A stretch of DNA of 30,272 nt. Origin: Gemmatimonadota bacterium. GTDB taxonomy: Bacteria > Gemmatimonadota > Gemmatimonadetes > Palauibacterales > Palauibacteraceae. Where the stretch lies: contig JBHIAV010000035.1 of NCBI GenBank assembly GCA_046758745.1, forward strand, positions 1 to 30,272, read 5' to 3'. This document shows, one piece after another, positions 10,359 to 30,219 of this stretch. The position numbers were made by a program, and so were the translations under genes. Numbering within the stretch: the stretch's first letter is position 1; every line of letters begins with the position of its first letter. Below the pieces are notes generated by a model, which had not been told where the DNA came from, searched no databases, and worked only from the letters and a program-made list of their open reading frames with translations.

Positions 10359-10847
10359 ATGGCCGACACGAAGGAGATCCGGGTCACCGTGAACGGCCGG
10401 TCGTACGAGGCCGCGGTCCAGCCCCGCATGCTGCTCGCGCACTTCCTGCGCGATGAGCTCGGGTTGACCGGCACCCACATCGGGTGCGACACGACGAGCT
10501 GCGGCGCGTGCACGGTTCTCCTGAACGGGACTCCCATCAAGTCGTGCACGCTGTTCGCCGTGCAGACGGACGGACAGGAGCTCATGACCGTCGAGGGCCT
10601 GGAGAGCAACGGTGAGCTTCACCCCGTCCAGAGCGGCTTCCGGGAGGAGCACGGCCTCCAGTGCGGCTTCTGCACCCCCGGGATGATGATGGTCGGCTAC
10701 GCGCTGCTCCATCGGAGCCCGAGCCCGAGCGAGGCGGAGATCCGGCGCGCCATCTCCGGCAATCTGTGCCGGTGCACCGGTTATCAGAACATCGTGAAGT
10801 CGATTCGCCACGCGGCCGCGAAGCTGGCCGAGGGAGGTGGGGAATGA
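10359..10847 (+). CDS. coxS: Aerobic CO dehydrogenase small (2Fe-2S) subunit
   Basis: [12 protein letters not shown]...KSC and QCGFCTPG...GNLCRCTGY iron-sulfur motifs. Confidence 0.95.
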
Positions 10848-10915
10848 GCGCGAGGAAGGCGGGGGAACCGGTGCTCGCTCACACGACGCCGGCGGCCCGA
10901 GGAGGTGCGGCATGA
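10844..10915 (+). CDS. Putative 23-aa micro-ORF ([23 protein letters not shown]) bridging coxS and coxL
   Basis: GGAGG RBS; ATG overlaps the coxS stop (ATGA) and its TGA overlaps the coxL start (ATGA). Confidence 0.4.
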
Positions 10916-13266: not shown

Positions 13267-13275
13267 GGGCGAGCC

Positions 13276-14424
13276 TTGGCTTCGCCGGGTGAGGAGGGAA
13301 GGGCCAGGCGGCGCCGCGGTGCCGCGACGCCGGTCGGGGTCGATCGCGCCCCGACCGGAGGGGAGGTCCTGTGGCTCGCTGCGCGCCTCGCCCAGCGCGG
13401 CGAGCCCTTCGCCCTCGCGACGGTCGTCCGGCGGCTCGCTCCGAGCTCGGCACAGCTCGGCCAGAAGGCACTCATCGACGCGGCAGGACGGCTGCACGGC
13501 TGGCTGGGAGGAAGCTGCATCGAGCCGATCGTGCGGCGCGAGGCGGAGCGGGCGCTCCGCGAGGGGAAGCCGCGGCTGGTGGTACTGGCGCCGGACGGCC
13601 GCTCCGATCGGCCGGAGGCGGCCGTGTACCGGATGACCTGTCACAGCGGGGGCATGGTGGAGATCTACGTGGAGCCGCAGCTCCCTGCACCGCAGCTCGT
13701 CCTGTTCGGCGACTCGCCGATCGGCCGTGCGCTGGCCGCGCTGGCCGCGGTGGCAGGATACGAGGTACGGGCGGGCGGCGTCGGGGAGGCCGCCGCCGAG
13801 GGCGATGCAATGCGCACGGAGCCGTTCGAGACGGCCACCGACCCGCCGGCGAGGCGCGAGCTGTACGCCGTCGTGGCCACGATGGGGGAGTGGGACGAGG
13901 AGGCCGTCGAGCAGGCCCTGGCCGCCGGTGCGGCGTACGTGGGACTGGTGGCCAGCCCGCGTCGAGCCGACGAAGTGCGACGCCGGCTGACCTCGCGAGG
14001 ACTGACGAAGGAGGCGCTGCGGCGGTTGGTGAGCCCGGCCGGGCTCGACGTGGGAGCGAAGGAGCCGGCCGAAGTCGCGGTGACCATTCTCGCGCAGATC
14101 ATCCAGCTCCGGCGGGGCGCGGGCCTCGAACCCGGACCGGCCGGAGAGGGGCCGGACGAGGCCTCCTGCGGGGAGCGGGTACTCCCGCAGTCGGGCGGGG
14201 AGCGGGCAATCGCGGAGTCGGGCGGGGAGCGGGGGGCGGAGAGCTCGTGGGGCGATGGCAGGGAGCGCGATGGGGCCGTGGCGCGGGATCCCGTATGCGG
14301 GATGGAGGTAGGGGTGTCAGGGGCACGGCATGTCTTGGTGGCGGGGCGGACCACCCACTACTTCTGCAGCGCCGGCTGCCGGGAGAGATTCACGGCCGCT
14401 CCGGCGCGCTTCACCGGGAGCTGA
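13276..14424 (+). CDS. XdhC/CoxF-family molybdenum cofactor maturation protein with C-terminal YHS/TRASH domain
   Basis: GWLGGSC, TCHSGG, YVGLVAS, SPAGLDVGAKEPAEVAVTILAQ (XdhC); C-terminal DPVCGM...YFCSAGC (YHS). Start codon uncertain (TTG 13276). Confidence 0.88.
   Translation: MASPGEEGRARRRRGAATPVGVDRAPTGGEVLWLAARLAQRGEPFALATVVRRLAPSSAQLGQKALIDAAGRLHGWLGGSCIEPIVRREAERALREGKPRLVVLAPDGRSDRPEAAVYRMTCHSGGMVEIYVEPQLPAPQLVLFGDSPIGRALAALAAVAGYEVRAGGVGEAAAEGDAMRTEPFETATDPPARRELYAVVATMGEWDEEAVEQALAAGAAYVGLVASPRRADEVRRRLTSRGLTKEALRRLVSPAGLDVGAKEPAEVAVTILAQIIQLRRGAGLEPGPAGEGPDEASCGERVLPQSGGERAIAESGGERGAESSWGDGRERDGAVARDPVCGMEVGVSGARHVLVAGRTTHYFCSAGCRERFTAAPARFTGS
14168..14233. repeat. 27-bp-period tandem repeat (core GCGGGGAGCGGG x3) in the XdhC-YHS linker
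   Basis: Core at 14168, 14195 and 14222; encodes SCGERVLPQ/SGGERAIAE/SGGERGAES. Confidence 0.8.
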
Positions 14425-14447
14425 CGGCGGGCGAAGACGGTGCATCG

Positions 14448-15497
14448 ATGAAAGAAGACATCCGGGAGATCGCGGAGGCGATGGAGCGCCAAGGCTACGT
14501 GGCGGACCGTGCGATCGCCACGGCCGTTCACCTCGCGCGCAGCCTTGGGAAGCCGCTCCTCGTGGAAGGAGAGGCCGGCGTAGGCAAGACGGAGATCGCA
14601 AAGGTCCTGGCTGCGGTACTCGGGACGGAGCTGATCCGCCTGCAGTGCTACGAGGGATTGGACGTCAACACGGCGCTGTACGAGTGGAACTACCCGAAGC
14701 AACTCCTGCGCATCCGGCTCGAGGGACTCCGGTGGGAGCCGCAAACGGAAGGGGCGGGTGAGTCGGACCGTGCGGGCGAGCCCGGCCCTGGGGCGGGTGA
14801 GTCGGGCCCCGCGACCACGTCCAGCCCGGCCTCCGGCGTATCGGGCCCCGCGACCGCGTCCAGCCCGGCCTCGGGCGAGGACCTCGAGCACCTGATCTTC
14901 GGGCCCGAGTACCTGATGGAGCGTCCGCTTCTCCAGGCGATCTCCCGCGAGCGACCGCCGGTTCTTCTCATCGATGAGATCGACCGGGCCGACGAGGAGT
15001 TCGAGGCGTTTCTGCTCGAGCTGCTGTCGGACTTCCAGGTTTCGATCCCCGAGCTCGGGACGATCCGGGCGAAGAGCCGCCCGCACGTCGTCCTCACCTC
15101 GAACAGCACGCGTGAGCTTAGCGACGCCCTGCGAAGGCGCTGCCTGTATCTGTGGATCGACTACCCCACTTTCGAGAAGGAGCTGCGGATCCTTAGGGCC
15201 CGCCTCCCGAGCCTGACGCCGGGGCTCGATGAGGAGATCGTTCGCTTCGTGCACCGGCTTCGGGCGGAGAAGCTGTTCAAGACGCCCGGTGTGGCGGAGA
15301 CGCTCGACTGGGCCGGGGCGCTGGGCACCATCGGCGTCGAGGCGCTCGACGCGGAGGTCATCCGTTCCACGCTCGGATGTCTGATAAAGGACCGGCACGA
15401 CTTCCAGAAGCTCTCGCGGAACGGCTTCGGCCGCTTGCTCGAGATCGACCCGAGTGCGGCGACGCGCGGCGGGGAGGAAGACACGACGGACCCGTGA
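14448..15497 (+). CDS. coxD: CoxD-like MoxR AAA+ ATPase
   Basis: Walker A GEAGVGKT, LQCYEGLD, YEWNY, Walker B LLIDEIDRAD, DALRRRC; located in the cox operon. Confidence 0.9.
   Translation: MKEDIREIAEAMERQGYVADRAIATAVHLARSLGKPLLVEGEAGVGKTEIAKVLAAVLGTELIRLQCYEGLDVNTALYEWNYPKQLLRIRLEGLRWEPQTEGAGESDRAGEPGPGAGESGPATTSSPASGVSGPATASSPASGEDLEHLIFGPEYLMERPLLQAISRERPPVLLIDEIDRADEEFEAFLLELLSDFQVSIPELGTIRAKSRPHVVLTSNSTRELSDALRRRCLYLWIDYPTFEKELRILRARLPSLTPGLDEEIVRFVHRLRAEKLFKTPGVAETLDWAGALGTIGVEALDAEVIRSTLGCLIKDRHDFQKLSRNGFGRLLEIDPSAATRGGEEDTTDP
14751..14878. repeat. 39-bp-period tandem repeat inserted in coxD
   Basis: GGGGCGGGTGAGTCGG at 14751 and 14790; TCGGGCCCCGCGACCRCGTCCAGCCCGGCCTCSGGCG at 14802 and 14841; gives 13-aa low-complexity units. 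Confidence 0.85.
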
Positions 15498-16663
15498 GCA
15501 GACGCGACGACGGCTCGGAGATCCGCGAGCGACCCCTGGAATGGACGGCCAGACTCGGACGGGCGCTGCGGGAAGACGGTGTCGCGTGCACGGTCGCCGA
15601 GTCTCTCGCCGCTACCCGGGCTCTCGAGTATCTCGATCTCGGCGACGCGCTCGACGTCTACTTCGGCCTGCGATCCGTCTTCACCTCCGAGCCCGTCCAT
15701 GCTCCGGCGTTCGATCGCTGCTTCTGGGAGCTATGGGGCCGGAGACAACGAGGAGGATGGGGCCGGCCGGCGAGGCCATCGAGGCCGGCGGGCTGGCAGA
15801 CGCGGCGGGAGCTGGTGAACCGCCTGCACCGCCGGAGCGCGGAGCGGTCGCCGGAGCACCCCGCCAGCTCGCCCGAAACCTCGGGGAGAGGGCGGACCGG
15901 GGCCGCCTACAGCGCCCTGGAGCTCCTCGCGCAACGCTCCTTCGGCTCGCTGGACGAGCGGGAGGTGCGGGAGCTCGACCGTGCGTTCGACCGTCTTCTC
16001 ATCCGGCTCGCCACGCGCCGCAGCCGCCGCCTACAGTCGGGGGGGCGCCGGGGGTCCGTCGACCTCCGCCGCAGCCTGCGAGCCGCCGTGCACCACGACG
16101 CGGAGCTCATCCGCCTGGCGCGCCGCCAGCGCCGTATCGACCGTCCCCGCGTCGTGCTGCTATGTGATGTCAGCGGCTCGATGGAGCGGTACAGCCGCTT
16201 CCTTCTGCGCTTTCTCCTCGCGGCGACTCGGGACCGAAGCGTCGAGGTCTTCGCGTTCAGCACCCGACTCACGCGGCTGACCCCCTGGCTCGCCGGCGTG
16301 CGGGCCGACGAGGCGCTGGTGGCGCTCGGCGACCACGTGCGCGATTGGTCGGGCGGAACGCGGATCGGCGCCTGCCTGGAAGAGTTCCTCGAGCGGTACA
16401 GCCGATCGATGTTGGGGCAGAAGACGGTCGTGGTGATCCTGAGCGACGGGCTCGACCGCGGCGACATCGCTTCGTTGGAGCGGGCGATGCGCGGGATCCG
16501 GCGCCGCACCCGTCGGGTGATCTGGCTCAATCCCCTCCTCGAGAGCCCGCAATACCGGCCCGAAGCGCGCGGGATGAAGGCAGCCCTCCCATACGTCGAT
16601 GACTTCGCCCCGGGGCACAGCCTGGAGGCACTTCGCCAGCTTGCCAGGTTGATCCGGCTGTGA
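15494..16663 (+). CDS. coxE: CoxE-like von Willebrand factor A domain protein
   Basis: MIDAS motif DVSGSM, plus FAFSTRL, WSGGTRIG, ILSDG, IWLNPL; GTG overlaps the coxD stop (GTGA). Confidence 0.9.
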   Translation: MSRRDDGSEIRERPLEWTARLGRALREDGVACTVAESLAATRALEYLDLGDALDVYFGLRSVFTSEPVHAPAFDRCFWELWGRRQRGGWGRPARPSRPAGWQTRRELVNRLHRRSAERSPEHPASSPETSGRGRTGAAYSALELLAQRSFGSLDEREVRELDRAFDRLLIRLATRRSRRLQSGGRRGSVDLRRSLRAAVHHDAELIRLARRQRRIDRPRVVLLCDVSGSMERYSRFLLRFLLAATRDRSVEVFAFSTRLTRLTPWLAGVRADEALVALGDHVRDWSGGTRIGACLEEFLERYSRSMLGQKTVVVILSDGLDRGDIASLERAMRGIRRRTRRVIWLNPLLESPQYRPEARGMKAALPYVDDFAPGHSLEALRQLARLIRL

Positions 16664-19061: not shown

Positions 19062-20945
19062 TCATCCGCTCGGCGAGACTTCCAGAACGAGGTTGAACAC
19101 CGACGAATCGATCTCGACCATATCCCGCAGCTCGTCTCGCACGGCGACCTCGATCCGGTCCCCGTACCGGGAAAGCCGTCTCAGCAGTCGGTGCAGATGA
19201 CGAAGCTGGCCCTCGTGCAGCTCATCGATGCGAAGCGTGACCGACGACGCCGTGTCGCGTAGCACTCTCTCCAGGTGATGTCCGGCACGGATGAAGAAAC
19301 CACGATCCAACCACCCCTTCATCCGAACCGACACAGTCGCGGCGGCATCCTTCACCTGCCTCAGGGAAACCTCCAAGGCATCCTGCTGAACGTAGTGTCG
19401 AAGCACTCTCTTCATCGACTCCACATGACTGTCCACGAGCTTCGCCATCGGCGCGGAGTGCCCGACAAGATGCCGGCTCGCATAGTCTCTCATCGCCAGG
19501 CCGACGATCCAGTCCTTGATCGCCTGCGGAACCAGCCTCGGTGACGACAAAGGGATCGAGCGACAGAAATGGAACATGGCAGACGGGCCACCACGGACCA
19601 GCCCGTGGACCAAGAGCCTCGTCAGCATCCCGATCCCCTCTCGTATCGAACGCTCCTCCCGACGAAGCGCGGGCACCAGGTAGCGGCACTTGTTTCTGAT
19701 GCGGTCCGCGATACTACGATGGGTCAGGAGTCGCTCGTGGAGCGCTCGATATCCGCTGACCATCTGGTCATACGTCATCTGCTTCGGGATGACGTTGGTG
19801 ACCAGCTTCGTGTTGTCCGCCACGTCTGCGTCGGGAACCAGCCTTCCCTCTTTCTCCAATCGCACGTACAGAGGCGTTCTCGGCAACGCGACCAGGAGTC
19901 CGACCATCGCCGTCTGGATGCCGGAGCTCATGATGAACCGATACTGCCTCTCGAATGTAGTGTTCGTGTCGTTGTCGAAGCCGATGATGAACCCGGCGAG
20001 CACATCGATGCCGAAGGAGTAGATCCTCCGCACCGACGAAAGCAGATCCTGCCGCAGGTTCTGGAACTTCTTGGTCTCCCTCAGGCTCGCTTCATCAGGG
20101 GACTCGATCCCGATGAAGACCCACTTGAAGTTCGCCTCACGAAAAAGGGTGAGCAACTCGCCATCTTGAGCCAAGTTCAAGGAAGCTTCCGTTCCAAAAT
20201 CGAACTGATAGTCGTGCTCCTGTTGGTAGTCTCTCAGGAACCTCAAGAGTTCCTTGGCTAGCTTCTTGTTTCCGATCAGGTTGTCATCGACAAAGAAGGC
20301 GTGATGCATCCCTAGCTCTCTCAACGCGTCGAGTTCTTTGCCCACCTGTTGAAGGGACTTGGTGCGGGGCTCCCGCCCGAACATCACGATGATGTCACAG
20401 AACTCGCATCGGTAGGGGCAGCCTCGGGAAAACTGCAAGCTTACCGTCTGGTACCTGTCCAGCCGGAGAAGGTCGAATCTCGGAGTGGGCGAGTCCGTCA
20501 TCGAAACCGTGCCGGTTTCACGATATACGGGCTCCGGAACGCCGCGTTCGAGGTCTCGGCAGAACTGCCGCCAGATATACTCGGCCTCACCCGCCACGAC
20601 TGTATCCGCGAGCGATTCATACCGCTCGGGACACAGCGAGGCATAGCTGCCGCCCGCGACGACGTAATACCCTCGACTCCGGTAGAAAGAGAGCAACTCC
20701 TTTTGTCGAGGGTACTGGACGCCCATGCCGCAGATACCGACGACATCCGCCCTCGGCTTCAGCGGGATGGACTCGATGTTCTCATCGACGATTGCGACTT
20801 CCCAGTCTGCAGGGCAGAGAGCCGCGAGAGTGGCCAACCCCAAGGGCGGGTTGATGGCCCTCTTGGCGGGCATGACCGTGTCGATCGCCCACTTGAAGCT
20901 CCAGAAGCTCTCGGGAAACTTCGGATTGATCAGTAGTAGCCTCAT
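19062..20945 (-). CDS. Cobalamin-binding radical SAM protein (DUF4070/HpnP-like family) with C-terminal extension
   Basis: N-terminal NPKFPESFWSF, PPLGLATLAAL, VVAGGSYAS, GEAE; radical SAM motif CPYRCEFC (20397-20420); FVDDNL, FIGIES, GFIIGFDND. Confidence 0.9.
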   Translation of the reverse strand: MRLLLINPKFPESFWSFKWAIDTVMPAKRAINPPLGLATLAALCPADWEVAIVDENIESIPLKPRADVVGICGMGVQYPRQKELLSFYRSRGYYVVAGGSYASLCPERYESLADTVVAGEAEYIWRQFCRDLERGVPEPVYRETGTVSMTDSPTPRFDLLRLDRYQTVSLQFSRGCPYRCEFCDIIVMFGREPRTKSLQQVGKELDALRELGMHHAFFVDDNLIGNKKLAKELLRFLRDYQQEHDYQFDFGTEASLNLAQDGELLTLFREANFKWVFIGIESPDEASLRETKKFQNLRQDLLSSVRRIYSFGIDVLAGFIIGFDNDTNTTFERQYRFIMSSGIQTAMVGLLVALPRTPLYVRLEKEGRLVPDADVADNTKLVTNVIPKQMTYDQMVSGYRALHERLLTHRSIADRIRNKCRYLVPALRREERSIREGIGMLTRLLVHGLVRGGPSAMFHFCRSIPLSSPRLVPQAIKDWIVGLAMRDYASRHLVGHSAPMAKLVDSHVESMKRVLRHYVQQDALEVSLRQVKDAAATVSVRMKGWLDRGFFIRAGHHLERVLRDTASSVTLRIDELHEGQLRHLHRLLRRLSRYGDRIEVAVRDELRDMVEIDSSVFNLVLEVSPSG

Positions 20946-21053
20946 TGACTCTGCGCTCCTTGCCGACCTCTGCCCTCACCGAGTCGACGACCCGCCGGGA
21001 TACCCTCGGATGACCAGGGCGGGCGGTTTCTCACCCGCCGCAGGTTTGGGAGT

Positions 21054-22271
21054 TCATCCCATCAGCAGGGAAGCCTTCTCACCAAGAGAAAGGTCACTGT
21101 ACTTGTGGCTCCCGGTGACTATTCCCAGGAGCTTCCGAAACAACAGCTCGTCGTGGCTCAGCCGGCGAATCGCGCGGTCGCCGACAGCCTTGTAGCGCGA
21201 GAGGTTCAGGAGGAGACGAGTGAATCGGAAAACGTCCTCGATGAGCTGGAAGCGGGCTCCCGCATATCGGCGTCCGAGCTCCGGACCGAAATCGCCCGTG
21301 GCGAACGCCTCCCTGATCAGGGGCACGGCCGCCTGCACGCACTTCAAAGCGAGCGTCATCCCCTCTCCCGTGATCGGGTCCAGGAACCCTGCGCTGTCAC
21401 CGATGAGAAGGAGCCCCGGCTGATAGCAAGGCTCAATCGAAAAACCCAAAGGCCCCACGGCGAACACAGGGGGGATCAGCCGGGCTCCCGAGATCCGATC
21501 CCGGAAACCCTCCGTCCTGCTCAAGAAGCTCATGTACTGGCCGCCGAGGTCGCCCCTGAAGAACTGCATTGCCCTCTCCTCGAGGAGCAGTGCGACCAGG
21601 CTTACGTCCTGCCCACACGGGGCGACATAGATCTCTCCATCGGCGTGAGGGAGCACTTCTACGTAAGAGCCGATCCCTTGGACTCCTCCCAGGTGACCAG
21701 TGATCCCGAATCGCCTGCGTCGGAGGTAGGTCTTCGTAAGCCCGCGCGCGGTGTGAAAGATGGAGTATCGCCCGTCGGCCGCGATGGTGAGCGAGGCATA
21801 CACCACATGGCGGTGAGCCCGGGAATCCACGAAATGTCCGGCTATCCCTCTGACGACGCCAGCCTCTCGGACCACGTCCGTCACCTTGAACCCCTCCCGG
21901 ACGGTAACGTTGGAGAAGGCTCTCGCTCGCCGAAGAAGCAGGTGGTCCAGATGGTAGCGGCGCATCACCACACCGAAGAGGATGGCGCTCTCGCCCGGGG
22001 GGAAATCCGACTGCGCCACGACGCCCTGGCGATTCGAGTACCGCATCCCTCGAATCTTCGTGCCGCCACGGGCGAGGACCTCCGGCAAGAGTCCGAGGTC
22101 TGCCAGGATCTGAGCGCCCTGTGGCATGATGCCCTCGCCGCAGGGCTTCTCGCGTGGGAACACTGCCTTGTCCAGGAGCAGGATCGAATAACCCTCCGGC
22201 GCGAGTGCGATCGCGGCAGATGCGCCGGCGATGCTGCTTCCGACGATGGCAATGTCGTATTGCGATCTCAT
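21054..22271 (-). CDS. FAD-dependent oxidoreductase (geranylgeranyl-reductase / flavin monooxygenase superfamily)
   Basis: DIAIVGSSIAGASAA (degenerate GxGxxG), FPREKPCGEG, AADGRYS, IGDSAGFLDPITGEG. Confidence 0.88.
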   Translation of the reverse strand: MRSQYDIAIVGSSIAGASAAIALAPEGYSILLLDKAVFPREKPCGEGIMPQGAQILADLGLLPEVLARGGTKIRGMRYSNRQGVVAQSDFPPGESAILFGVVMRRYHLDHLLLRRARAFSNVTVREGFKVTDVVREAGVVRGIAGHFVDSRAHRHVVYASLTIAADGRYSIFHTARGLTKTYLRRRRFGITGHLGGVQGIGSYVEVLPHADGEIYVAPCGQDVSLVALLLEERAMQFFRGDLGGQYMSFLSRTEGFRDRISGARLIPPVFAVGPLGFSIEPCYQPGLLLIGDSAGFLDPITGEGMTLALKCVQAAVPLIREAFATGDFGPELGRRYAGARFQLIEDVFRFTRLLLNLSRYKAVGDRAIRRLSHDELLFRKLLGIVTGSHKYSDLSLGEKASLLMG

Positions 22272-22281
22272 CGCGAGCTCT

Positions 22282-22330
22282 TCATCGACGATTGCGACTT
22301 CCCGATCCGCAGGACAACGGCCGCAAGGAG
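22282..22330 (-). pseudogene. Short degenerate remnant of a B12-radical SAM gene N-terminus
   Basis: Exact 22-bp match TCATCGACGATTGCGACTTCCC at 22282-22303 and 20782-20803. Flank reads LAA/CPADREVAIVDE versus LAALCPADWEVAIVDE, with an apparent 1-nt deletion. Confidence 0.65.
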
Positions 22331-22361
22331 GGGCTCTCCGAGGCCGTCACACTCCGAAAGC

Positions 22362-23327
22362 TTACGCGCGCTTCAGGTAGTATACGGCCTGATCGCCCGA
22401 CCCTTGTGCATTGAGGAGCGCCGCCCGTCGCTCAAAGGCTCTGATTTGTCGCTTGCTGAAGTGCGCGGAGAGGCCGCTGCTTCCCTCTCTCCCCGGTTGG
22501 GCCTCTCGCAGCGGAATGCCCGCTCGGTAGAGCTCGCTCCCCCAGAACTGAAACGCCGTCGAGTCACGATAGGAGTCCGTCAATCGCATCCCACCATTCT
22601 TGGCCGCCGCCTCGAGTCCCATCCGGGAGGGGATGCAGATGTGTCGGGGCGCATCGATCTGCACCCAGTCGACGCCGTACTCCGTCCAAGCCTGACAGGG
22701 AACCGCCGGTGACCTGATGATGCACACGCCGTCTCGGGCGAGCAGCGTGCCGATCTTCTTGATCGCGCCCTCCGGGTCCGTCAGGTGCTCGAACACATGG
22801 TGAAGCATTATCACATCCCATGTGCCATCCGTCTCGTCGAGTGTCTGCTTTCTTACCAGCGTCATGTCGCCATACCGTACATCATTCTGTACATACGGAT
22901 CTATCCCTGATACTTGGCTAACACCTAATTCATATAGCTTGCGTAACAACGTACCGGCGCCGCAGCCAACATCGAGGATGCGCGAGTTCTCATCAACCCG
23001 GACACGAGCCAGAGATCTGAGAGCAGGGTTCGGGTGACGCCGATAGAGGAGCCGGCCGAGCAAGCCCTCGCTGTACACCGCATATGTGTCCCGGAGCCTG
23101 CGTATGCGGAGAGCTATGTAACTACGTTTTCCCTCGGCGTCCGCCAGGGAGTAATAGTCGTGGGGATAATAGAGCGACAAATCCGATGGGGCATCAGCGA
23201 TCTGCAAAGTACCACAACGACCGCATTGGAAGTACTCGAAAGAATCGCGTCGGCCGAACATCATCTCGTGGACCGTGACGACGACTTCGGGATCTCGTGC
23301 GCCGCATAGCCGACAAGTCATGGTCAT
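22362..23327 (-). CDS. Class I SAM-dependent methyltransferase with N-terminal CxxC...CxxC (putative Zn) motif
   Basis: CRLC...CGRC; SAM motif ILDVGCGAG; GIDP; HVFEHL; DAPRH. Confidence 0.88.
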   Translation of the reverse strand: MTMTCRLCGARDPEVVVTVHEMMFGRRDSFEYFQCGRCGTLQIADAPSDLSLYYPHDYYSLADAEGKRSYIALRIRRLRDTYAVYSEGLLGRLLYRRHPNPALRSLARVRVDENSRILDVGCGAGTLLRKLYELGVSQVSGIDPYVQNDVRYGDMTLVRKQTLDETDGTWDVIMLHHVFEHLTDPEGAIKKIGTLLARDGVCIIRSPAVPCQAWTEYGVDWVQIDAPRHICIPSRMGLEAAAKNGGMRLTDSYRDSTAFQFWGSELYRAGIPLREAQPGREGSSGLSAHFSKRQIRAFERRAALLNAQGSGDQAVYYLKRA

Positions 23328-23713
23328 ACCTGGGGGTGCCTTGGACAGGCGGAGGTTGGGGCTAGTGCTGCTGACCGAATGCCTCGAAGGAATCCGCCCG
23401 CTGAATCTGCAGTTTCACGCGTATCATCGGCCCTCTTGTGGAGCTGCCTCGGTGTAACCCGGGATCTCCTCGGCCGAGTCAGGGGCGCTGCCGGGCTGCA
23501 CCACACCCCAATTCCCGACGACGATGGACGGGCCGAGGGCCGGCGTCAAGCTCATACGGCGGTCAGAGGCTCGGGGATCCCGAGGCCGTCCCGTGGAGTC
23601 TCTGAATGCCAGTCCATGCGAATGGCCCGAGCTGGAGCCTGATGATCAAGCGCCTCAGGCAGGAGCGGGTCGGCGTCGCGGCTACTTCTGTGCGGAAAGC
23701 CAGCTATGAACAA

Positions 23714-23787
23714 TACGCCCGGAGGGATTCGAACCCCCAACCTCCTGATCCGTAGTCAGGTGCTCTATCCAGTTGAGCTACGGGCGC
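23714..23787 (-). tRNA. tRNA-Arg(ACG)
   Basis: GCGCCCGTAGCTCAACTGGATAGAGCACCTGACT-ACG-GATCAGG...GTTCGAATCC...GGGCGTA; CCA not encoded. Confidence 0.96.
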
Positions 23788-23845
23788 ACTCGAAACGCGG
23801 CCGCTCGGGGATCGTGCGCTCACGCCGCGTCGTCGCCGAGGGGGA

Positions 23846-23929
23846 TGCCCAGGAGAGGATTCGAACCTCCACGACCTTGCGGCCACCAGCCCCTCAAGCT
23901 GGCGCGTCTGCCAATTCCGCCACCTGGGC
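23846..23929 (-). tRNA. tRNA-Leu(GAG)
   Basis: GCCCAGGTGGCGGAATTGGCAGACGCGCCAGCTT-GAG-GGGCTGG, long variable arm, GTTCGAATCC; CCA not encoded. Confidence 0.96.
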
Positions 23930-23932
23930 GAG

Positions 23933-24017
<85 letters not shown>

Positions 24018-24200
24018 CCATGACGGGCGCCGATCCGAGCGCGGGAGGCCCTCGGAACGGACCGCCCGATGGTCACCCGCGGCTCGGCCGACACCGCCGT
24101 ACCCCCAGAACAATCACCCCCGCCTGAAAGCGAGGGCGCCTGATCCGGGTCCCCGGCGGGCGAACACACCTGGAACCGCGAGCCGTCACGGGACGATCGA

Positions 24201-24427: not shown

Positions 24428-26296
24428 TCAGTGACAGCCGCACCCCGACTCGAGCTGCACGGTGCCCGGATGAGGCGGGGTCTTGCGCTTCTCGACGATG
24501 GGCAGGGACCGGCTCCCCGGTCTCAGATCCATGGGACGGTCTCCGGCGTAGATCTGGTGCCGCCCCTTGTCCTTGAACCAGTCCCGCGTCTTCGCGACCA
24601 TGTGCATGTTCTCCACGATCTTCCGCCACCCGGCGCCGGTGTTGTAGGCGCAGAAGGAGATCTCCCCCTCCTGGGTGGCGTACGGGATCACGCACATCTC
24701 GGTGCGCCGGAAGTCATACGTCCACAGGTCCTGGAACCACATCCCGCCGACCCACATCAGGTTCCACTCGCCGGTATCGGTGTCCCCCGTATCGAGCGAG
24801 CCACCCATCTTCCGGTTGGCGAGCTGGAGGAACTTCCGGGTCGTCAAGCCGGGCGGCATCTCCTTCTGGTTCAGATTTCGGAGCAGCGCCAAACCCGCCT
24901 GCACCTTGCTCAAGGTCATCCCGCGCGACGTGTCGGTGATCACGTTGATGTCCTTGACGAACTGCTCGACGTCGAAGAAGGCGGTGAACGGCGCCCACTC
25001 CTTGGTACGATTGTTGATCGCCAGGATCAGGCTGGCCCCGCAGTTCGGATGGCAGGAGCAGCTCAGCCCTCCGAACTCCACCTGTGGGCCGCGCAGGTGA
25101 TCCGCCAGCCAGGTGAAGGCCCCCATCGCGCCCAGGGGGTAGAAGTCGCGGTACGGGTCGATCCTCCCGTCGAAATAGCGCGAGAACTCGTGCGCCAGGT
25201 GGGAGATCGTGTACCGCTGACGGCGCCGGTCCTCGTTGCTGATGTGCTCGTCCCGGCCGGTGAACGAGACCGGCTGGAAGGAGACGGCTCCCATCTTGTC
25301 CGAGTTCTGGATCACGAAGTCGAGGATCGGACCTACCTGCTGATCGTTGATCGTGTTGATCACCGTCGTGACCGGGGTGATGTCGATCCCCGCATTGTGC
25401 ATCCGCTCGATGGCGAGCCACTTGGCGTCGAACAGGTTCGAGATGTGGCGGTGCCGGTTGGCCTCGTTGGTCACTCCGTCGAACTGGAGGTAGGCCATGT
25501 CGAGACCCGCCTCCTTCGCCTGGTAGGCGAACTCCGGCTCGAGCGCGAAGCGGAGGCCGTTGGTCGCCGCCTGCACGTTGTAGTAGCCGATCTCTTTGGC
25601 GTACCGGCAGGCCTCGAGGAAGTGCGGCGACATGGTCGGCTCGCCCCCCGAGTACTGCACGGACATCTGGCGGCGCGGCTTGAACGAGATCGAGTCCTCG
25701 AGGATCTCCTTGATCTCGTCCAGCGTGAGCTCGTGCACGTACCCGACCTGGTTCGCGTCCATGAAGCACGGGTTGCACATCATGTTGCATCGATTGGTCA
25801 GGTCGAGGGTAAGCACGGCCCCGCGCCCGTACCGGATAGTGGAGCTCCCGTGCCGATGCACGTGGTCGTCGTTCGAGGTCCGGTAGTCACGACCGAAGAA
25901 GCGCCGCTCAAGCAGCTCGCTGAGCTTCGGGTCGATCGAGAGGGTGTCCTCGTACTCGCCGTGTCGCTCGCACCTCTTACGGATCTTTATCTTACCGTCC
26001 TCCTCGACGATCTGGGCCCGGATCTCTCCGGTCTTCTTTTCGGTAAACTCCGCGAGGTCACGGTCCCCGGCGATGATCGCGTCCCGTACCTCGATCACGC
26101 AGTCCGGACAGAGCGAGTCCGTCTCCCGCGGCCAGCCAAGCGGCGGTTTCGTGCGCTCGTAGCTCTTGGGGAGCGGGCCCGGCGCCCACTCCGGCTGGAT
26201 GGAAGGGCTGTCGGGAATTCGCGTGTTTACGGCCTGAAAGGCGTTCCACGCGAGGTTGGCGGCGGTCTTCGCCGCGGTGGCGAGCAGGTCACTCAT
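24428..26296 (-). CDS. Radical SAM protein, bacterial homolog of tetraether synthase Tes / GDGT-MAS (MJ0619 family)
   Basis: Rubredoxin-like SLCPDC...IVEEDGKIKIRKRCERHG; DLTNRCNMMCNPCF; QYSGGEPT; ATNG; YLQFDG; FQPVSFTGR; CHPNCG; MWFQDLWTYDFRRTEMCVIPYAT...SFCAYN. These are colinear with MJ0619 motifs as recalled (SLCPIC, CPEHG, YLQFDG, FQPVSFTGR, MHFMDAYNFD, CCIHYAT, PFCTYN). RBS GGGAGG. Confidence 0.88.
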   Translation of the reverse strand: MSDLLATAAKTAANLAWNAFQAVNTRIPDSPSIQPEWAPGPLPKSYERTKPPLGWPRETDSLCPDCVIEVRDAIIAGDRDLAEFTEKKTGEIRAQIVEEDGKIKIRKRCERHGEYEDTLSIDPKLSELLERRFFGRDYRTSNDDHVHRHGSSTIRYGRGAVLTLDLTNRCNMMCNPCFMDANQVGYVHELTLDEIKEILEDSISFKPRRQMSVQYSGGEPTMSPHFLEACRYAKEIGYYNVQAATNGLRFALEPEFAYQAKEAGLDMAYLQFDGVTNEANRHRHISNLFDAKWLAIERMHNAGIDITPVTTVINTINDQQVGPILDFVIQNSDKMGAVSFQPVSFTGRDEHISNEDRRRQRYTISHLAHEFSRYFDGRIDPYRDFYPLGAMGAFTWLADHLRGPQVEFGGLSCSCHPNCGASLILAINNRTKEWAPFTAFFDVEQFVKDINVITDTSRGMTLSKVQAGLALLRNLNQKEMPPGLTTRKFLQLANRKMGGSLDTGDTDTGEWNLMWVGGMWFQDLWTYDFRRTEMCVIPYATQEGEISFCAYNTGAGWRKIVENMHMVAKTRDWFKDKGRHQIYAGDRPMDLRPGSRSLPIVEKRKTPPHPGTVQLESGCGCH

Positions 26297-26384
26297 GGGA
26301 CCTCCCTTCTGAGTAGCCCGGCGGAGCCTGCGAGCCGGGCGTGACAGGGACGTAGCCTCTCCCCACTCCGAAAACGTGGTGAAC

Positions 26385-27575
26385 TCACAACACCTCCAAC
26401 TCGGCGTCCACGTCGAGCGCCGATCGCGAGACGAATCGCGCCGCGCCTGTCACACGCGCGGCGAGCTCGGGACCCACCTCCGAGCGGTCCGCGATAACGA
26501 AGCAGATCGGCCCGGCGCCTCCGCCGTGGCCGCCGTCGTCGGCCGCGGCCCCGGTCCGCGCGGCCGCCTTCCCATTCCGCCCTCCTGCGCCGAACAGCCC
26601 GAGGAGCCTCTTGCGCTCCGAGGCGACATGCCGATTCTCCTTCCGCCGAGCCTCGATGGCGCGCAGGAAGCTGGTAACCATCCCCTCACGGCACACCACG
26701 AGCTCGGGCTCCAGCTCGGCGACACGCCCGGCTGCCTCCGCCGAGGTGGCGAACGCCGCGCGGGAGAGACCGTCCGCCCAGCAGGCGTAGAGGATGGCGC
26801 GGGAGAGCATCTCCGGCCGCTCGTCGGCCAGCACCCGCACCCGGCCGCGCGCGGGGGGAAAGCGCCGGAGCACGCTCTCGATGACCCTTACGAGAACGCG
26901 GTGGTCCACCTCGCGTCTGTCCAGCCCCGTCTCCGCATACTCGAACGCGACCACGTCGCCAGGCTCCGCCTCCCGGGCCGAGGTGCGCCACATCGAGGCT
27001 CGCTCGGGCGTGTCCAGGACGCTGCCGTAGTCCATCAGCTTCTCGAAGGGAAGCGATTCCTCTTCCGGATCGGTAGGGCCCCCCATCAGGATCGTCGCTC
27101 GCACGGACTCGGGGAGGCCTCCGGTCAACTTCAGGGCGTTCAGCGACTCGATATCCGGGGCGAAGAGTACCTGAGGGCTCGCATCGGCCAGCACTTCGCC
27201 CACGCGCCGAAGATCCCACTCCGGCCACACCGGGACGCTGATGGCGCCGATGGACCAGCAGCCGCGTTCCACGTAGGCCCACTCCCGGGACAGGGGGAAC
27301 CAGAGGGCCACCGTCTCGCCGCCGCCCACCTGGAGGCGCTGCCGGAGCACGAGCGCGGTCCGAATGGCGCTTCGGTCGGCCCGCCAATCCGGGGTCCCCT
27401 GCCAGCCCCACCCCGTGCGACGCCCCTTCTCCCAGTCGAGGAAGAGCTCGGCCCGGTCGTGGTAGCGGGCGCCGTGGAGTAGCAGGCGGTTCAGCGTGTC
27501 CGGGCCGCGTTCGTCCACGTGCTCGTCACTCGAGTCGGCAGCAACGCCGAACGGGAAAGGTCGTGAATCGCTCAA
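26385..27575 (-). CDS. AMP-binding (long-chain acyl-CoA ligase-like) domain protein, apparently degenerate and truncated
   Basis: N-terminal ANL-like pattern (GETVALW...EW...IGAISVPVW...VLADASPQVLF...EPGDVVAFEY), but the YTSGTTGxPKG loop is replaced and no C-terminal subdomain is evident; TTG start after GGAGG. Confidence 0.7.
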   Translation of the reverse strand: MSDSRPFPFGVAADSSDEHVDERGPDTLNRLLLHGARYHDRAELFLDWEKGRRTGWGWQGTPDWRADRSAIRTALVLRQRLQVGGGETVALWFPLSREWAYVERGCWSIGAISVPVWPEWDLRRVGEVLADASPQVLFAPDIESLNALKLTGGLPESVRATILMGGPTDPEEESLPFEKLMDYGSVLDTPERASMWRTSAREAEPGDVVAFEYAETGLDRREVDHRVLVRVIESVLRRFPPARGRVRVLADERPEMLSRAILYACWADGLSRAAFATSAEAAGRVAELEPELVVCREGMVTSFLRAIEARRKENRHVASERKRLLGLFGAGGRNGKAAARTGAAADDGGHGGGAGPICFVIADRSEVGPELAARVTGAARFVSRSALDVDAELEVL

Positions 27576-27588
27576 CGCCCAGCCTCCG

Positions 27589-28080
27589 TCAATTCCGGAC
27601 CTCTTCCCAGATCCGTTCGATCAGCGGGTCCTCGATGCCCCACAGCTCCATGGCGTGGATGATCGTCCGTATGTATTCCACGCCGGTCCCGACGACCCCG
27701 CGCGCCGAGTGAAGGGCTTCGAGCACCACGCCATTCTCCGGCCACAGGCGCTCGTCCGGAGACGGCAGGTAGCTCCTGGCCTTCCGGCCGCGGCCGCGAG
27801 CGTCGAGCACGCTCACCGCACGGGCCGAGCGCCTTTCCCGCTGCTTCAGGTTGTGAAACAGGAGGCGACGGTCCCCCAACGGGATGCGGAAGAGTACGCC
27901 CTCGCATCCGTCACCCATAACCAGGCCGATCTGCGGGCAGGGGCGCTCCGGGGACCCCCACCGCTGGGTGGATTCTCCGACGAAAGCGCGGCGCATTCCC
28001 TGCACACGGACCCTTTCGCCCTGGTAGGCGGCGAGGGCGTTGTCCCACATCAAGGATCCGTAGGCCAGCAGCCTAGCCAT
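27589..28080 (-). CDS. ChaC-like gamma-glutamylcyclotransferase
   Basis: LLAYGSLMW signature, RWGSPERP, LKQRE (catalytic Glu region), GVVGTGVEY; ATG at 28080. Confidence 0.85.
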   Translation of the reverse strand: MARLLAYGSLMWDNALAAYQGERVRVQGMRRAFVGESTQRWGSPERPCPQIGLVMGDGCEGVLFRIPLGDRRLLFHNLKQRERRSARAVSVLDARGRGRKARSYLPSPDERLWPENGVVLEALHSARGVVGTGVEYIRTIIHAMELWGIEDPLIERIWEEVRN

Positions 28081-28224
28081 TCCAACTCCCGAGAGGACGG
28101 CTCCCAAGATTGCTTCTTACTCCTAATGCTTCCCATTCGGCGGGGGTTCCCGAGTCTCCCCGCGCGTTTTTTCATCGTCCCGGCGGGAGGCAGGAGGTCG
28201 GCCCGCCTTCGGCTGCCCGCGGCT

Positions 28225-29676
28225 TCACGCCGACTGGGTTTCGGGGACCAGGGAGGCGAACCCCGGCGGACGCGAGTCGACCGGAACCTCCAGGTAGGCC
28301 TTCGGGTCGCGCATGTCCTTGAGAGCGCGCAAAAGCCGCCAGAAGACGAACCCGTAGCCGCGTACGTACAGACCAAGGGCGGACTTGATCGCAGACCATC
28401 CTACTCGCTGATGCTTCGCGGTCATGCTGTACAGCCGCGCGAAGCGCTCGTAAAAGCGCTCCAGCGGCAGACGCGTCGGCAGGACGCTGTGCACCACGTC
28501 GTACATCAGGTAGTTGTTCGTCACCAGCTCGCTGCGGTACTGCTCGTACAGCTCCGTGCCCGGGAGCGGCGTGAGGACGGTGAAGACCGGCTGGTCGAGC
28601 CGCATCTCCTCCAGATACGCCTCGAGGCGATCGAAGTCCTCCTCTCCCCACTGCGGGTCGACGATGAACGAGGTCATCGGCCGGATCCCCTTGTCCTGCA
28701 GGATCCGGATCGCCAGGTAGTTCTTCTCCTGGTCGGTCCGCTTGCGAACGGACTCCAGCCCCGCGTCGTCGATCTTCTCTATTCCCAAGAAGATGGTGCG
28801 CAATCCGACGTACCGCCACAGGTCGAACATGTCCTCGTACTTCACCACCAGATCGGCCCGCGTCTCGGCGGAGAAGTTCCGGAACATCCCGGCCGCCTTG
28901 ATCTCGTTCCCCAGCTCCTCGTAGCTCGGCCGGTGAATGAAGGCGATGTCATCGGTGAAGAAGATGTTGTGCTCGGGTACGGTCTCCAGGTCACGCATGA
29001 TGCCCCTGGGGCTACGCCGGCGGGCCCGGCGGGCGTAGAAGATCCACACGCTGCAGAAGTTGCAATCGAACGGACACCCGCGGGACGTCTCCACCGCCGC
29101 CGAGGGCACCCACGAGCCGTGATGGTACCTCCGCCGGTACCGCTGGGTGAGGTGCCTCCCCGGGAGCGGCATCTCGTCCAGGCTCGCGGTCATCATCCGC
29201 GGCTGGAAGCCGTCTCCGCGATTCTCCAGCGTCATCACACCGGGCACCTCCCCGATCGGCTTCCGCGCTGAGAGCGCACGCAACAACGCCTGCGAGGTGT
29301 GCTCGCCTTCGCCGACGACAAGGGCGTCGAAGGGCGTCCCGTCGAACAGGAAGTCGTCGGTCTGCAGACTGGCGTGGTGCCCGCCCGCGAACAGCATCAC
29401 ATCCGGGTCGAGGGCGCGAAGGAAGCCGCTCACATGCAGGGCCGGATACACATCCGTCATGAACTGGGAGGCCACGCCGACCGCGTCCGGTCCGAAGCTC
29501 TCGTATTCCGCCTGCAGGGAGCGCCAGCTGTCGAGGCGCATGTCCACGATCCGAACGTCGTGCCCCTCCTCCTCCAGGGCACCGCCGACGCACTCGAGGC
29601 CCAGAGGCTCGATGCGCAGGATGTTCGTGAAGCCGAAGTTGGTTCCCTGTGGCGGTTGGACGAGGAGGACTTTCAC
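28225..29676 (-). CDS. Cobalamin-dependent radical SAM methyltransferase-like protein (HpnR-like, class B)
   Basis: LRIEPLGLECV, GHDVRIVD, AGGHHAS, GEGE, ETSRGCPFDCNFC (29053-29076), FFTDD, ETRADL, FLGIE, TPLPGT; GTG start after GGAGG. Confidence 0.88.
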   Translation of the reverse strand: MKVLLVQPPQGTNFGFTNILRIEPLGLECVGGALEEEGHDVRIVDMRLDSWRSLQAEYESFGPDAVGVASQFMTDVYPALHVSGFLRALDPDVMLFAGGHHASLQTDDFLFDGTPFDALVVGEGEHTSQALLRALSARKPIGEVPGVMTLENRGDGFQPRMMTASLDEMPLPGRHLTQRYRRRYHHGSWVPSAAVETSRGCPFDCNFCSVWIFYARRARRRSPRGIMRDLETVPEHNIFFTDDIAFIHRPSYEELGNEIKAAGMFRNFSAETRADLVVKYEDMFDLWRYVGLRTIFLGIEKIDDAGLESVRKRTDQEKNYLAIRILQDKGIRPMTSFIVDPQWGEEDFDRLEAYLEEMRLDQPVFTVLTPLPGTELYEQYRSELVTNNYLMYDVVHSVLPTRLPLERFYERFARLYSMTAKHQRVGWSAIKSALGLYVRGYGFVFWRLLRALKDMRDPKAYLEVPVDSRPPGFASLVPETQSA

Positions 29677-29955
29677 GGCGAACCTCCGGAGCTGGGCGGT
29701 GCTCCCTAAGGTGTAACGCGGAAAGTTATAGCTCCGCTGGCAATTGCGCCAGCAATCAGCTAGAAGAACCGCCTCCGCCGCTCTCGTGTTCCCACCGCAG
29801 CGTGCCCCTCTTCTTCACGGGGCGGCTTGCGCCGACGGAGGGACCTCCCACAACCCCTCTCCGCTTCCGCGTCGCGCTGCTCCGGCTCGCTTCCAGCGGA
29901 GTTCTGAAAGAACGAGGCCGCCCCGCGTGTGACAGGGCGGCCCGCACTCCCGGAA

Positions 29956-30030
29956 TGTGCCCGACAGGATTCGAACCTGTGACCTTCGGCTCCGGAGGCC
30001 GACGCTCTATCCAGGCTGAGCTACGGGCAC
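29956..30030 (-). tRNA. tRNA-Arg(CCG)
   Basis: GTGCCCGTAGCTCAGCCTGGATAGAGCGTCGGCCT-CCG-GAGCCGA...GTTCGAATCC...GGGCACA. Confidence 0.96.
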
Positions 30031-30109
30031 CTCGCATCCGTGGGTGAGCCGCGAAAGCCTTGCCTCGGCGGCCCGCCTCCTTGGACGCGGGCCGGAAATC
30101 AGTGCCGGA

Positions 30110-30182
30110 TGCGCCGCCAGGGAATCGAACCCCGAACCTACTGGTTAAGAGCCAGTTGCTCTGCCAATTGAGCTAGCGGCGC
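30110..30182 (-). tRNA. tRNA-Lys(CTT)
   Basis: GCGCCGCTAGCTCAATTGGCAGAGCAACTGGCT-CTT-AACCAGT...GTTCGATTCC...GGCGCA. Confidence 0.96.
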
Positions 30183-30219
30183 ACGGGCCTCCACCGCCGG
30201 AGCCGGCGGCGGGCGCGAG

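Follow-up and report, generated by a model that had tools for sequence, protein, structure and literature searches.

A candidate membrane-lipid remodelling module in Gemmatimonadota that links a Tes-like radical SAM enzyme to an HpnR-like B12 enzyme

Results

Four co-oriented genes at the locus

The stretch of DNA analysed here (the window) comprises 30,272 nucleotides and is contig C35 of a Gemmatimonadota bacterium (GenBank assembly GCA_046758745.1, contig JBHIAV010000035.1), whose genome assembly spans 3.08 Mb in 130 contigs, is 87.4% complete and has ~69% G+C. Four minus-strand open reading frames occupy positions 29676 to 24428, with a tRNA cluster on either side, and we examine them as a candidate module for the remodelling of membrane lipids. 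In order of transcription they encode an HpnR-like B12-binding radical S-adenosylmethionine (SAM) enzyme of 483 amino acids (28225..29676; PF02310 plus PF04055, TIGR04367), which is a candidate alkyl-chain C-methylase; a ChaC-like protein of γ-glutamylcyclotransferase (GGCT) fold, 163 amino acids long when counted from the ATG at 28080 (27589..28080; PF04752); a truncated and apparently catalytically dead protein of the ANL superfamily, of 396 amino acids (26385..27575; recognised by a partial PF00501 match, its model and synteny); and a Tes/GDGT-MAS-like radical SAM enzyme of 622 amino acids (24428..26296; NF045702, 7TOL/7TOM), from a clade without the N-terminal [4Fe-4S] cluster. A reading of this DNA made from its letters alone (the sequence-only reading) had described four co-oriented genes with gaps of 144, 13 and 88 bp, and these are the intergenic distances obtained when the ChaC-like gene starts at 28080. 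An alternative TTG start at 28107 would extend that protein to 172 amino acids; the ATG, which has GGGAG ahead of it, is the likelier of the two.

All three gene junctions are bridged, with zero differences, by DNA contigs of another sample of the same study, and the Tes-like gene has the same neighbours in other genomes as well, so that the grouping of these genes is not due to chance. Among the contig pieces listed, no single one covers the entire stretch, and positions 23914-23968, within tRNA genes, are unbridged. Among public runs the stretch occurs in those of one study only, all of them metagenomes from hydrothermal vents, and the nearest loci come from metagenome-assembled genomes (MAGs) labelled Gemmatimonadota or Gemmatimonadales, with 78-87% identity in the Tes-like protein. 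One terminator-like hairpin lies between the upstream tRNA genes and the HpnR-like gene (29915..29943, minus strand; 12-pair stem, T-rich tail) and another downstream of the Tes-like gene (24115..24138, minus strand; 10-pair stem, T-rich tail), both of them consensus matches only, and a hairpin scan of the window found none on the minus strand between these two. The four-gene module is probably transcribed as one unit.

The tRNA genes themselves, all on the minus strand, are Arg-ccg and Lys-ctt on the upstream side (29956-30183) and Arg-acg, Leu-gag and Leu-cag on the downstream side (23713-24017). Although both of the clusters that had been described as enclosing the genes are present, their position is incidental: tRNA genes are entirely missing at six of nine related loci, and the flanks are therefore placed outside the module. 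The idea that they form part of it, or mark an island, was rejected.

The Tes-like enzyme belongs to a bacterial clade lacking the N-terminal cluster

The Tes-like protein combines the HMPTM zinc ribbon (PF23545, residues 56-119) with a Radical_SAM domain. Its score on the Tes model NF045702 is 307.7 bits (307.8 in the genome search), under the equivalog cut-off of 450. Residues 92-554 align with the GDGT-MAS structure 7TOL (E 1.9e-58), and the AlphaFold model of the protein (mean predicted local distance difference test score, pLDDT, 76.7) matches 7TOM in Foldseek with E 1.1e-30 and TMt 0.83 over 546 columns at 27-28% identity. No full-length Foldseek matches other than 7TOM and 7TOL were obtained, the next match being MoaA at E 1e-6. 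The last gene of the cluster is thus colinear with the Tes family, as had been proposed, and its product is a genuine full-length relative of GDGT-MAS that stands outside the curated Tes family.

The metal ligands of GDGT-MAS are known from Lloyd et al. (2022; PMC9433317), the available text of which names Met439 as a ligand of the C-terminal cluster, and the conservation of the corresponding residues was scored in 22 clade members. The rubredoxin-type site CX2C...CX2H (C9, C12, C33 and H36 of MJ0619) corresponds to C63, C66, C109 and H112, all invariant; C109 and H112 fall within the 7TOL alignment, and C63 and C66, upstream of it, are placed by motif spacing and by PF23545. The radical SAM motif CX3CX2C (C170, C174, C177) is likewise invariant in all 22. 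M519 aligns with Met439 of MJ0619 and is retained in 20 of the 22, while C419 and C535 (19/22 rows each) and C549 (21/22) align with MJ0619 cysteines, all three being kept in the close subclade; their role as ligands is assigned by alignment alone. In contrast to these retained positions, the three cysteines (C73, C77, C80) that, with a His, belong to the N-terminal [4Fe-4S] cluster of MJ0619 are all replaced, by H145, H149 and S152, in a segment (141-157) that is modelled with pLDDT below 50.

Representatives for a quick IQ-TREE phylogeny were drawn from a search of 1.84 billion proteins; midpoint rooting served for drawing only, and the claim made from the tree is one of monophyly and not of sister group. 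None of the 14 rows closest to the query has the N-cluster motif, and together they form a single clade on a long stem (SH-aLRT 100). Among neighbouring rows with the motif, scores on the Tes model range over 386-558 bits and six of ten exceed the cut-off. One clade member with 42% identity, P0250, is the protein of Terriglobus roseus DSM 18391 (WP_014786616). The Tes-like proteins are accordingly a distinct bacterial clade, branching among bona fide Tes, in which the N-terminal [4Fe-4S] cluster has been lost. Placement in the Tes clade, on which the sequence-only reading had made its interpretation depend, therefore holds as regards branching position but does not extend to membership of the curated family or to the full set of cofactor sites.

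The N-terminus is ~55 residues longer than that of GDGT-MAS and contains a predicted helix. In the close subclade this helix (residues 2-24) carries conserved Trp residues, two extra cysteines are conserved as a CxC before HPNC (C413, C415), and a flexible C-terminal tail ends in CGCH (619-621) in most members; these features may provide an additional metal or redox site that offsets the lost cluster. A subclade of P0250, P0254 and P0276, which includes Terriglobus roseus, has no cysteines aligned to C415, C419 and C535, and may either lack the C-terminal cluster or hold it by other ligands.

The same genome encodes a second paralogue of the Tes superfamily, on contig C37 (L095:166-2625, minus strand; 540 amino acids). 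Its best match is TrsS, at 319 bits (cut-off 490). The N-cluster motif is retained in it, as CPHDCGLC, and the next gene encodes a DVU_1556-family methyltransferase (146 bits, cut-off 155). These two genes are a separate two-gene system.

A truncated ANL-type protein is adjacent to, and sometimes fused with, the Tes-like enzyme

Of the 384 positions of the PF00501 AMP-binding profile, the ANL-like protein matches 29-149 only, and PF13193, the C-terminal subdomain with the catalytic Lys, finds no match. The predicted structure (pLDDT 87.5) resembles acyl- and acetyl-CoA synthetases in Foldseek (E ~5e-14, probability 1.00, ~290 columns), and for residues 23-310 the nearest entries in the Atlas are long-chain fatty-acid-CoA ligases (TM 0.84-0.87). 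The conserved core spans residues ~26-307, the tail being variable. The phosphate-binding loop of ANL enzymes is a Ser/Thr/Gly-rich motif ending in Lys; it was not found at ~205-222 (PGDVVAFEYAETGLDRRE), a stretch that is unconserved among 33-37 orthologues, which keep W64, R68, D188, T189, E191, R192, A193, R197 and G269 instead. Because it ends before the C-terminal subdomain and has no conserved phosphate-binding loop, the protein does not appear to be an active ligase. Judged from its sequence and model, it adopts the fold of the ANL N-domain in a truncated and catalytically dead form, which agrees with its earlier description as a dead acyl-CoA ligase.

Conservation of this gene pair was followed in the 80 best loci of the Tes-like gene, all of them from MAGs for the close subclade. 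The ANL-like gene immediately precedes the Tes-like gene at 35 of the 74 loci having at least 1 kb of upstream sequence; by taxon label, the adjacency is found at 11/16 loci of Gemmatimonadota, 17/29 of Acidobacteriota and 7/11 of Myxococcota/'delta', and at 0/24 loci of other groups. A search of the 120 best homologues of the Tes-like enzyme returned four (P0045, P0052, P0064, P0076) in which the ANL-like part is fused N-terminally to it, the ANL core running directly into the Tes-like part near residue 307. The combination of fusion and adjacency speaks for the two proteins being physical partners. A complex prediction for Tes-like residues 45-600 and ANL-like residues 20-310, run with alignments, returned scores of 0.72, 0.29 and 0.00; it gives no verdict and is used neither way. 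As a separate observation, at loci L029, L033 and L037-L050 (Latescibacterota and two Acidobacteriota) the Tes-like gene stands directly upstream of the housekeeping genes tig-clpP-clpX, without an ANL-like partner.

The ChaC-like protein scores 50.3 bits on PF04752 (cut-off 21) across profile positions 4-174 of 176. Proteins of the ChaC/GGCT fold are marked by a YGSL motif and a catalytic Glu, and an alignment of 21 orthologues shows conservation of AYGSLM, RWGxPxxPCP and RE, from which the protein looks active. Its match to ChaC2 in the PDB is weak (E 0.04). The gene is present at 20 of the 80 loci, eight from Gemmatimonadota and 12 from Acidobacteriota.

The HpnR-like enzyme tracks the Tes-like gene and not hopanoid synthesis

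The first gene had been assigned to the class B cobalamin radical SAM enzymes and has the corresponding architecture, with PF02310 at residues 22-131 followed by PF04055 at 195-339. In NCBIfam it matches HpnR (TIGR04367) best, reaching 352 of the 650 bits required over model positions 1-428 of 490, and BchE second, with 153 bits. None of the four matches to TIGR04367 in the host genome is over the cut-off. With the same threshold of 650, scores of 320-355 bits were obtained for ten out of ten homologues, including several that carry the name 'HpnR' in their sources, and the ranking of HpnR over BchE is common to all.

Taking as a neighbour any HpnR-like gene of at least 45% identity within 3.5 kb of the Tes-like gene, we found one at 13 of the 80 loci (11 Gemmatimonadota, two Acidobacteriota). 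It occurs in four placements, namely upstream-divergent, downstream-convergent, downstream-codirectional and upstream-codirectional, the last being that of the window and of G135. All four genes stand together at seven of the 80 loci, in Gemmatimonadota only; the neighbourhood that had been predicted to be conserved in relatives thus recurs as pairwise linkage, although the complete set is confined to the one phylum. At seven further loci, from other phyla, a BchE/HpnJ-like B12 radical SAM gene adjoins the Tes-like gene, and the association with B12 radical SAM enzymes therefore recurs with different partners.

Co-occurrence was then assessed in an even sample of 200 other Gemmatimonadota genomes (201 including that of the window). 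The Tes-like gene is present at 68-87% identity in eight of the 200 and at 54-56% in two, and ~35% identical genes of TrsS/Tes type occur in 17. An HpnR-like gene (51-75% identity) is found in exactly the eight genomes that have the 68-87% identical Tes-like gene, and in seven of these eight carriers the two genes share a contig and lie within 2 kb of each other. Squalene-hopene cyclase (shc) is over its cut-off in six of the 201 genomes, including a single one of the eight carriers; the five other shc-positive genomes have no HpnR-like gene. The closest relative of the host, G086, has shc. TIGR01507 squalene-hopene cyclase has no match in the host genome, in which, at 87% completeness, the absence of shc is unproven; methylation of hopanoids by the B12 enzyme in a genome with shc had been named as a finding that would refute the module. 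From these distributions the HpnR-like family is a sister of HpnR that follows the Tes-like gene and not hopanoid synthesis. In three genomes of another class of the phylum (G014, G024, G028), the ~35% identical Tes/TrsS-type genes contain one in-frame TGA each, consistent with selenoprotein forms of TrsS.

Lipid genes elsewhere in the genome and other genes of the window

Contig C81 of the same genome (L094:95-5588) carries adjacent genes for an AGPS-like FAD enzyme (695 amino acids), a fatty-acyl reductase/acyltransferase fusion (926 amino acids) and a short-chain dehydrogenase/reductase (481 amino acids), which we take to be an alkyl-dihydroxyacetone-phosphate route to ether lipids. PcrB/GGGPS has no match over the cut-off in the genome, and in a bacterial host without GGGPS the substrate of the Tes-like enzyme would therefore be fatty-acid-based. 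A PlsA/Ger identity for the HGD-D genes of contig C28 was rejected, as they encode separate subunits with an activator and lie beside enoyl-CoA hydratases.

Past the downstream tRNA cluster, in a region of lower G+C (58-63%), the window carries three further minus-strand genes (19062-23327) for a second B12 radical SAM enzyme with DUF4070 (627 amino acids), a flavoprotein of the geranylgeranyl-reductase (GGR) family (TIGR02032, 102 bits against a cut-off of 158.8) and a SAM methyltransferase. The DUF4070 enzyme belongs to a very conserved, unnamed family, with 64-78% identity in Gemmatimonadota and Thermodesulfobacteriota. This trio was rejected as an extension of the cluster since no member of it is found near the Tes-like gene in the 80 loci; the B12 query drawn from it gave cross-matches to other B12 genes near Tes-like loci in that set. 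Genes at 10837-16663, for a molybdopterin hydroxylase large subunit, an AAA ATPase and a CoxE-like VWA protein, form an ordinary accessory set of CO-dehydrogenase/xanthine-dehydrogenase type.

Discussion

We have described a four-gene cluster in which an enzyme of the Tes/GDGT-MAS fold is accompanied by an ANL-like protein, a ChaC-like protein and an HpnR-like B12 radical SAM enzyme. Its Tes-like enzyme shares with archaeal Tes/GDGT-MAS (MJ0619; 7TOL, 7TOM; NF045702) the overall fold over ~545 columns, the rubredoxin-type site, the CX3CX2C motif, the aligned C-terminal cysteines and the equivalent of Met439. It differs from the archaeal enzyme in its sub-cut-off score, the lost ligands of the N-terminal cluster, the ~55 extra N-terminal residues and the CxC and CGCH-tail features, as well as in having a dedicated and sometimes fused ANL-like partner and a bacterial host without GGGPS. 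The B12 enzyme resembles HpnR (TIGR04367), a class B radical SAM methylase, in the order of its B12-binding and radical SAM domains and in its best-scoring family, whereas its score is about half the cut-off, squalene-hopene cyclase was not found in the genomes concerned save one, and its linkage is to the Tes-like gene and not to hpn genes.

Two other systems combine comparable chemistry. According to the available text of Garcia et al. (2024; PMC11214058), the B12 radical SAM enzyme Gmm methylates archaeal membrane-spanning lipids and is clustered with Gms, and bacterial gms-tes clusters are reported. The Gms-Gmm clusters of archaea and the bacterial gms-tes/gms-mss clusters in that text are therefore alike to the present one in placing a radical SAM enzyme for membrane-spanning lipids beside a chain-methylating B12 radical SAM enzyme; they differ in that Gmm is MoeK5-like and the enzyme of the window HpnR-like, a distinction drawn from the description, and in that no Gms-type SPASM/Twitch gene was seen in the window cluster. 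The second system, Mss with Ger/PlsA in Thermotogota and Bacillota, likewise involves a radical SAM enzyme proposed to make diabolic or iso-diabolic acid lipids (Sahonero-Canavesi et al., 2022). The same authors describe the relationship of Mss to Tes as no more than remote, and the host studied here has an AGPS-type ether route, with no PlsA-type fusion found. What is new is the tight, hopanoid-independent linkage of an HpnR-like gene to the Tes-like gene, together with the Gemmatimonadota host.

We put it at somewhat better than even that the locus is an accessory module for membrane-lipid remodelling that combines tail coupling with methylation. The basis for this consists of homology, the pattern of retained and lost cofactor sites, the gene fusions, synteny, and co-occurrence irrespective of hopanoid genes; from it we infer what the module acts on and makes, and what the ANL-like and ChaC-like proteins do. 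According to this model, the Tes-like enzyme would couple two glycerolipid tails, either fatty acyl or alkyl, at their terminal carbons by means of a 5'-deoxyadenosyl radical and its C-terminal Fe-S cluster, giving membrane-spanning lipids of iso-diabolic-acid or branched glycerol dialkyl glycerol tetraether (brGDGT) type. The ANL-like protein would serve as a subunit of this enzyme that does not adenylate, and may either dock it on the membrane or bind or present a lipid tail to it. Unactivated carbons of the same chains would be methylated by the HpnR-like enzyme, and the ChaC-like enzyme, with its catalytic signature kept, would have an auxiliary role. The sequence-only reading had likewise seen a dedicated tail-coupling and tailoring module with a lipid-binding helper, and it is partly supported: homology, linkage and the failure to find shc speak for it, while the sub-cut-off Tes score and the lost N-terminal cluster do not, and the helper role is a matter of inference only.

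Several observations weigh against such a module. Besides the score under the Tes cut-off and the replacement of all three N-terminal cluster ligands, the Tes-like clade is known from sequence and predicted structure alone, and its close subclade is represented by MAGs only (80/80 best loci), with the consequence that no lipid phenotype is tied to it. The function of bacterial Tes is called inferred or untested in the available text of reviews and papers up to 2026, and Tes homologues were present in only three of 14 iso-diabolic-acid-producing acidobacteria at the thresholds of the authors (Sahonero-Canavesi et al., 2022). As far as the accessible text of Sinninghe Damsté et al. (2017) goes, hpnR was absent from all examined acidobacterial genomes except that of Ca. 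K. versatilis; because of this absence HpnR-type enzymes are not a general brGDGT methylase, unless divergent paralogues fell below threshold. Finally, the ChaC-like enzyme is without an obvious place in lipid chemistry, and the closest relative of the host, G086, does have shc.

A further-reaching proposal can be formulated, in which the HpnR-like family accompanying the close Tes-like subclade acts as a C-methylase on the chains of bacterial membrane-spanning lipids, coupling is performed by the cluster-reduced Tes-like enzyme together with its dead ANL subunit, and Gemmatimonadota, including vent lineages, are unrecognised producers of methylated iso-diabolic-acid or brGDGT-type lipids. We regard this as possible rather than probable and advance it tentatively.

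The most serious alternative, which we nevertheless judge unlikely, is that the module acts on a non-lipid substrate, whether a small molecule, a cofactor or a peptide-derived compound, with the Tes-like enzyme forming a C-C or C-S bond on it and with amino-acid or γ-glutamyl chemistry behind the presence of the ANL-like and ChaC-like proteins. GGCT-fold enzymes usually act on γ-glutamyl compounds, and the ChaC signature is conserved here. The functions of some superfamily members are also disputed or unknown, and the name of the Pfam N-terminal domain goes back to the earlier assignment of MJ0619 as a pterin methyltransferase; the second paralogue in the genome is TrsS-like and paired with a DVU_1556-family methyltransferase; and the lost N-terminal cluster together with the extra cysteines (C413, C415 and the CGCH tail) marks divergence. 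Against this stand the full-length fold, which matches only the lipid enzyme GDGT-MAS, an ANL-like partner structurally nearest to long-chain fatty-acid-CoA ligases, and a companion B12 enzyme closest to a lipid methylase family. Moreover, clustering of the neighbouring open reading frames across the 80 loci recovered no recurrent peptide precursor, carrier protein or transporter, but only the ANL-like, ChaC-like and B12 genes and housekeeping genes.

It is less probable still that the Tes-like enzyme couples tails while the HpnR-like enzyme carries out some other radical chemistry, such as ring formation or cross-linking in the manner of GrsA/B or of BchE-type enzymes. B12 radical SAM enzymes do also cyclise, GrsA/B being an example given in the available text of PMC11214058, BchE is the second-best match of the window enzyme, and the B12 neighbour in other phyla is BchE/HpnJ-like and not HpnR-like; the methylase HpnR is, however, by far the better match (352 against 153 bits), with the same ranking in 10/10 relatives. 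That the HpnR-like gene is a hopanoid C-3 methylase merely adjoining an unrelated operon, as the best NCBIfam match, the name 'hopanoid C-3 methylase' given to homologues by some sources and the shc of G086 might suggest, is very improbable given 352 bits against the 650 required (320-355 in 10/10 homologues), the failure to find shc in the host genome or in seven of the eight carriers, the five other shc genomes without an HpnR-like gene, and the persistence of this gene beside the Tes-like gene through rearrangements.

Returning to the lipid-remodelling module, its bearing on the study of bacterial membrane-spanning lipids is of several kinds. Bacterial Tes homologues have been proposed to account for brGDGTs, in a study the available text of which is without Gemmatimonadetes, gene clusters or operons (Zeng et al., 2022), and the pathway of Halamka et al. 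(2022) is drawn 'excluding C5/C6 methylations'. Our searches of article texts returned nothing relevant on a brGDGT-linked B12 radical SAM methyltransferase beyond a general review, and nothing relevant on Gemmatimonadota or Gemmatimonadetes as brGDGT producers, in line with the suggestion of the sequence-only reading that this lineage is not recognised as such. Our analysis distinguishes at least two kinds of 'bacterial Tes homologue', with and without the N-terminal cluster, which surveys of genes for brGDGT producers should separate, and the cysteines missing from the Terriglobus roseus subclade are a further caution against treating all such homologues alike.

Methylation indices of brGDGTs are among the main continental palaeothermometers, and the enzyme responsible for this methylation is not assigned in the literature examined. 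The locus described here is a compact, co-expressible set in which a candidate coupling enzyme and its obligate-looking partner are joined by a methylase-type enzyme and a ChaC-like protein, and comparative evidence indicates that its parts belong together and are not hopanoid genes. With the hopanoid-independent, Tes-linked HpnR-like enzyme and the Gemmatimonadota host, this question becomes directly testable. If the assignment is true, the HpnR-like family would make the 'extra methyls' that drive the brGDGT temperature proxies.

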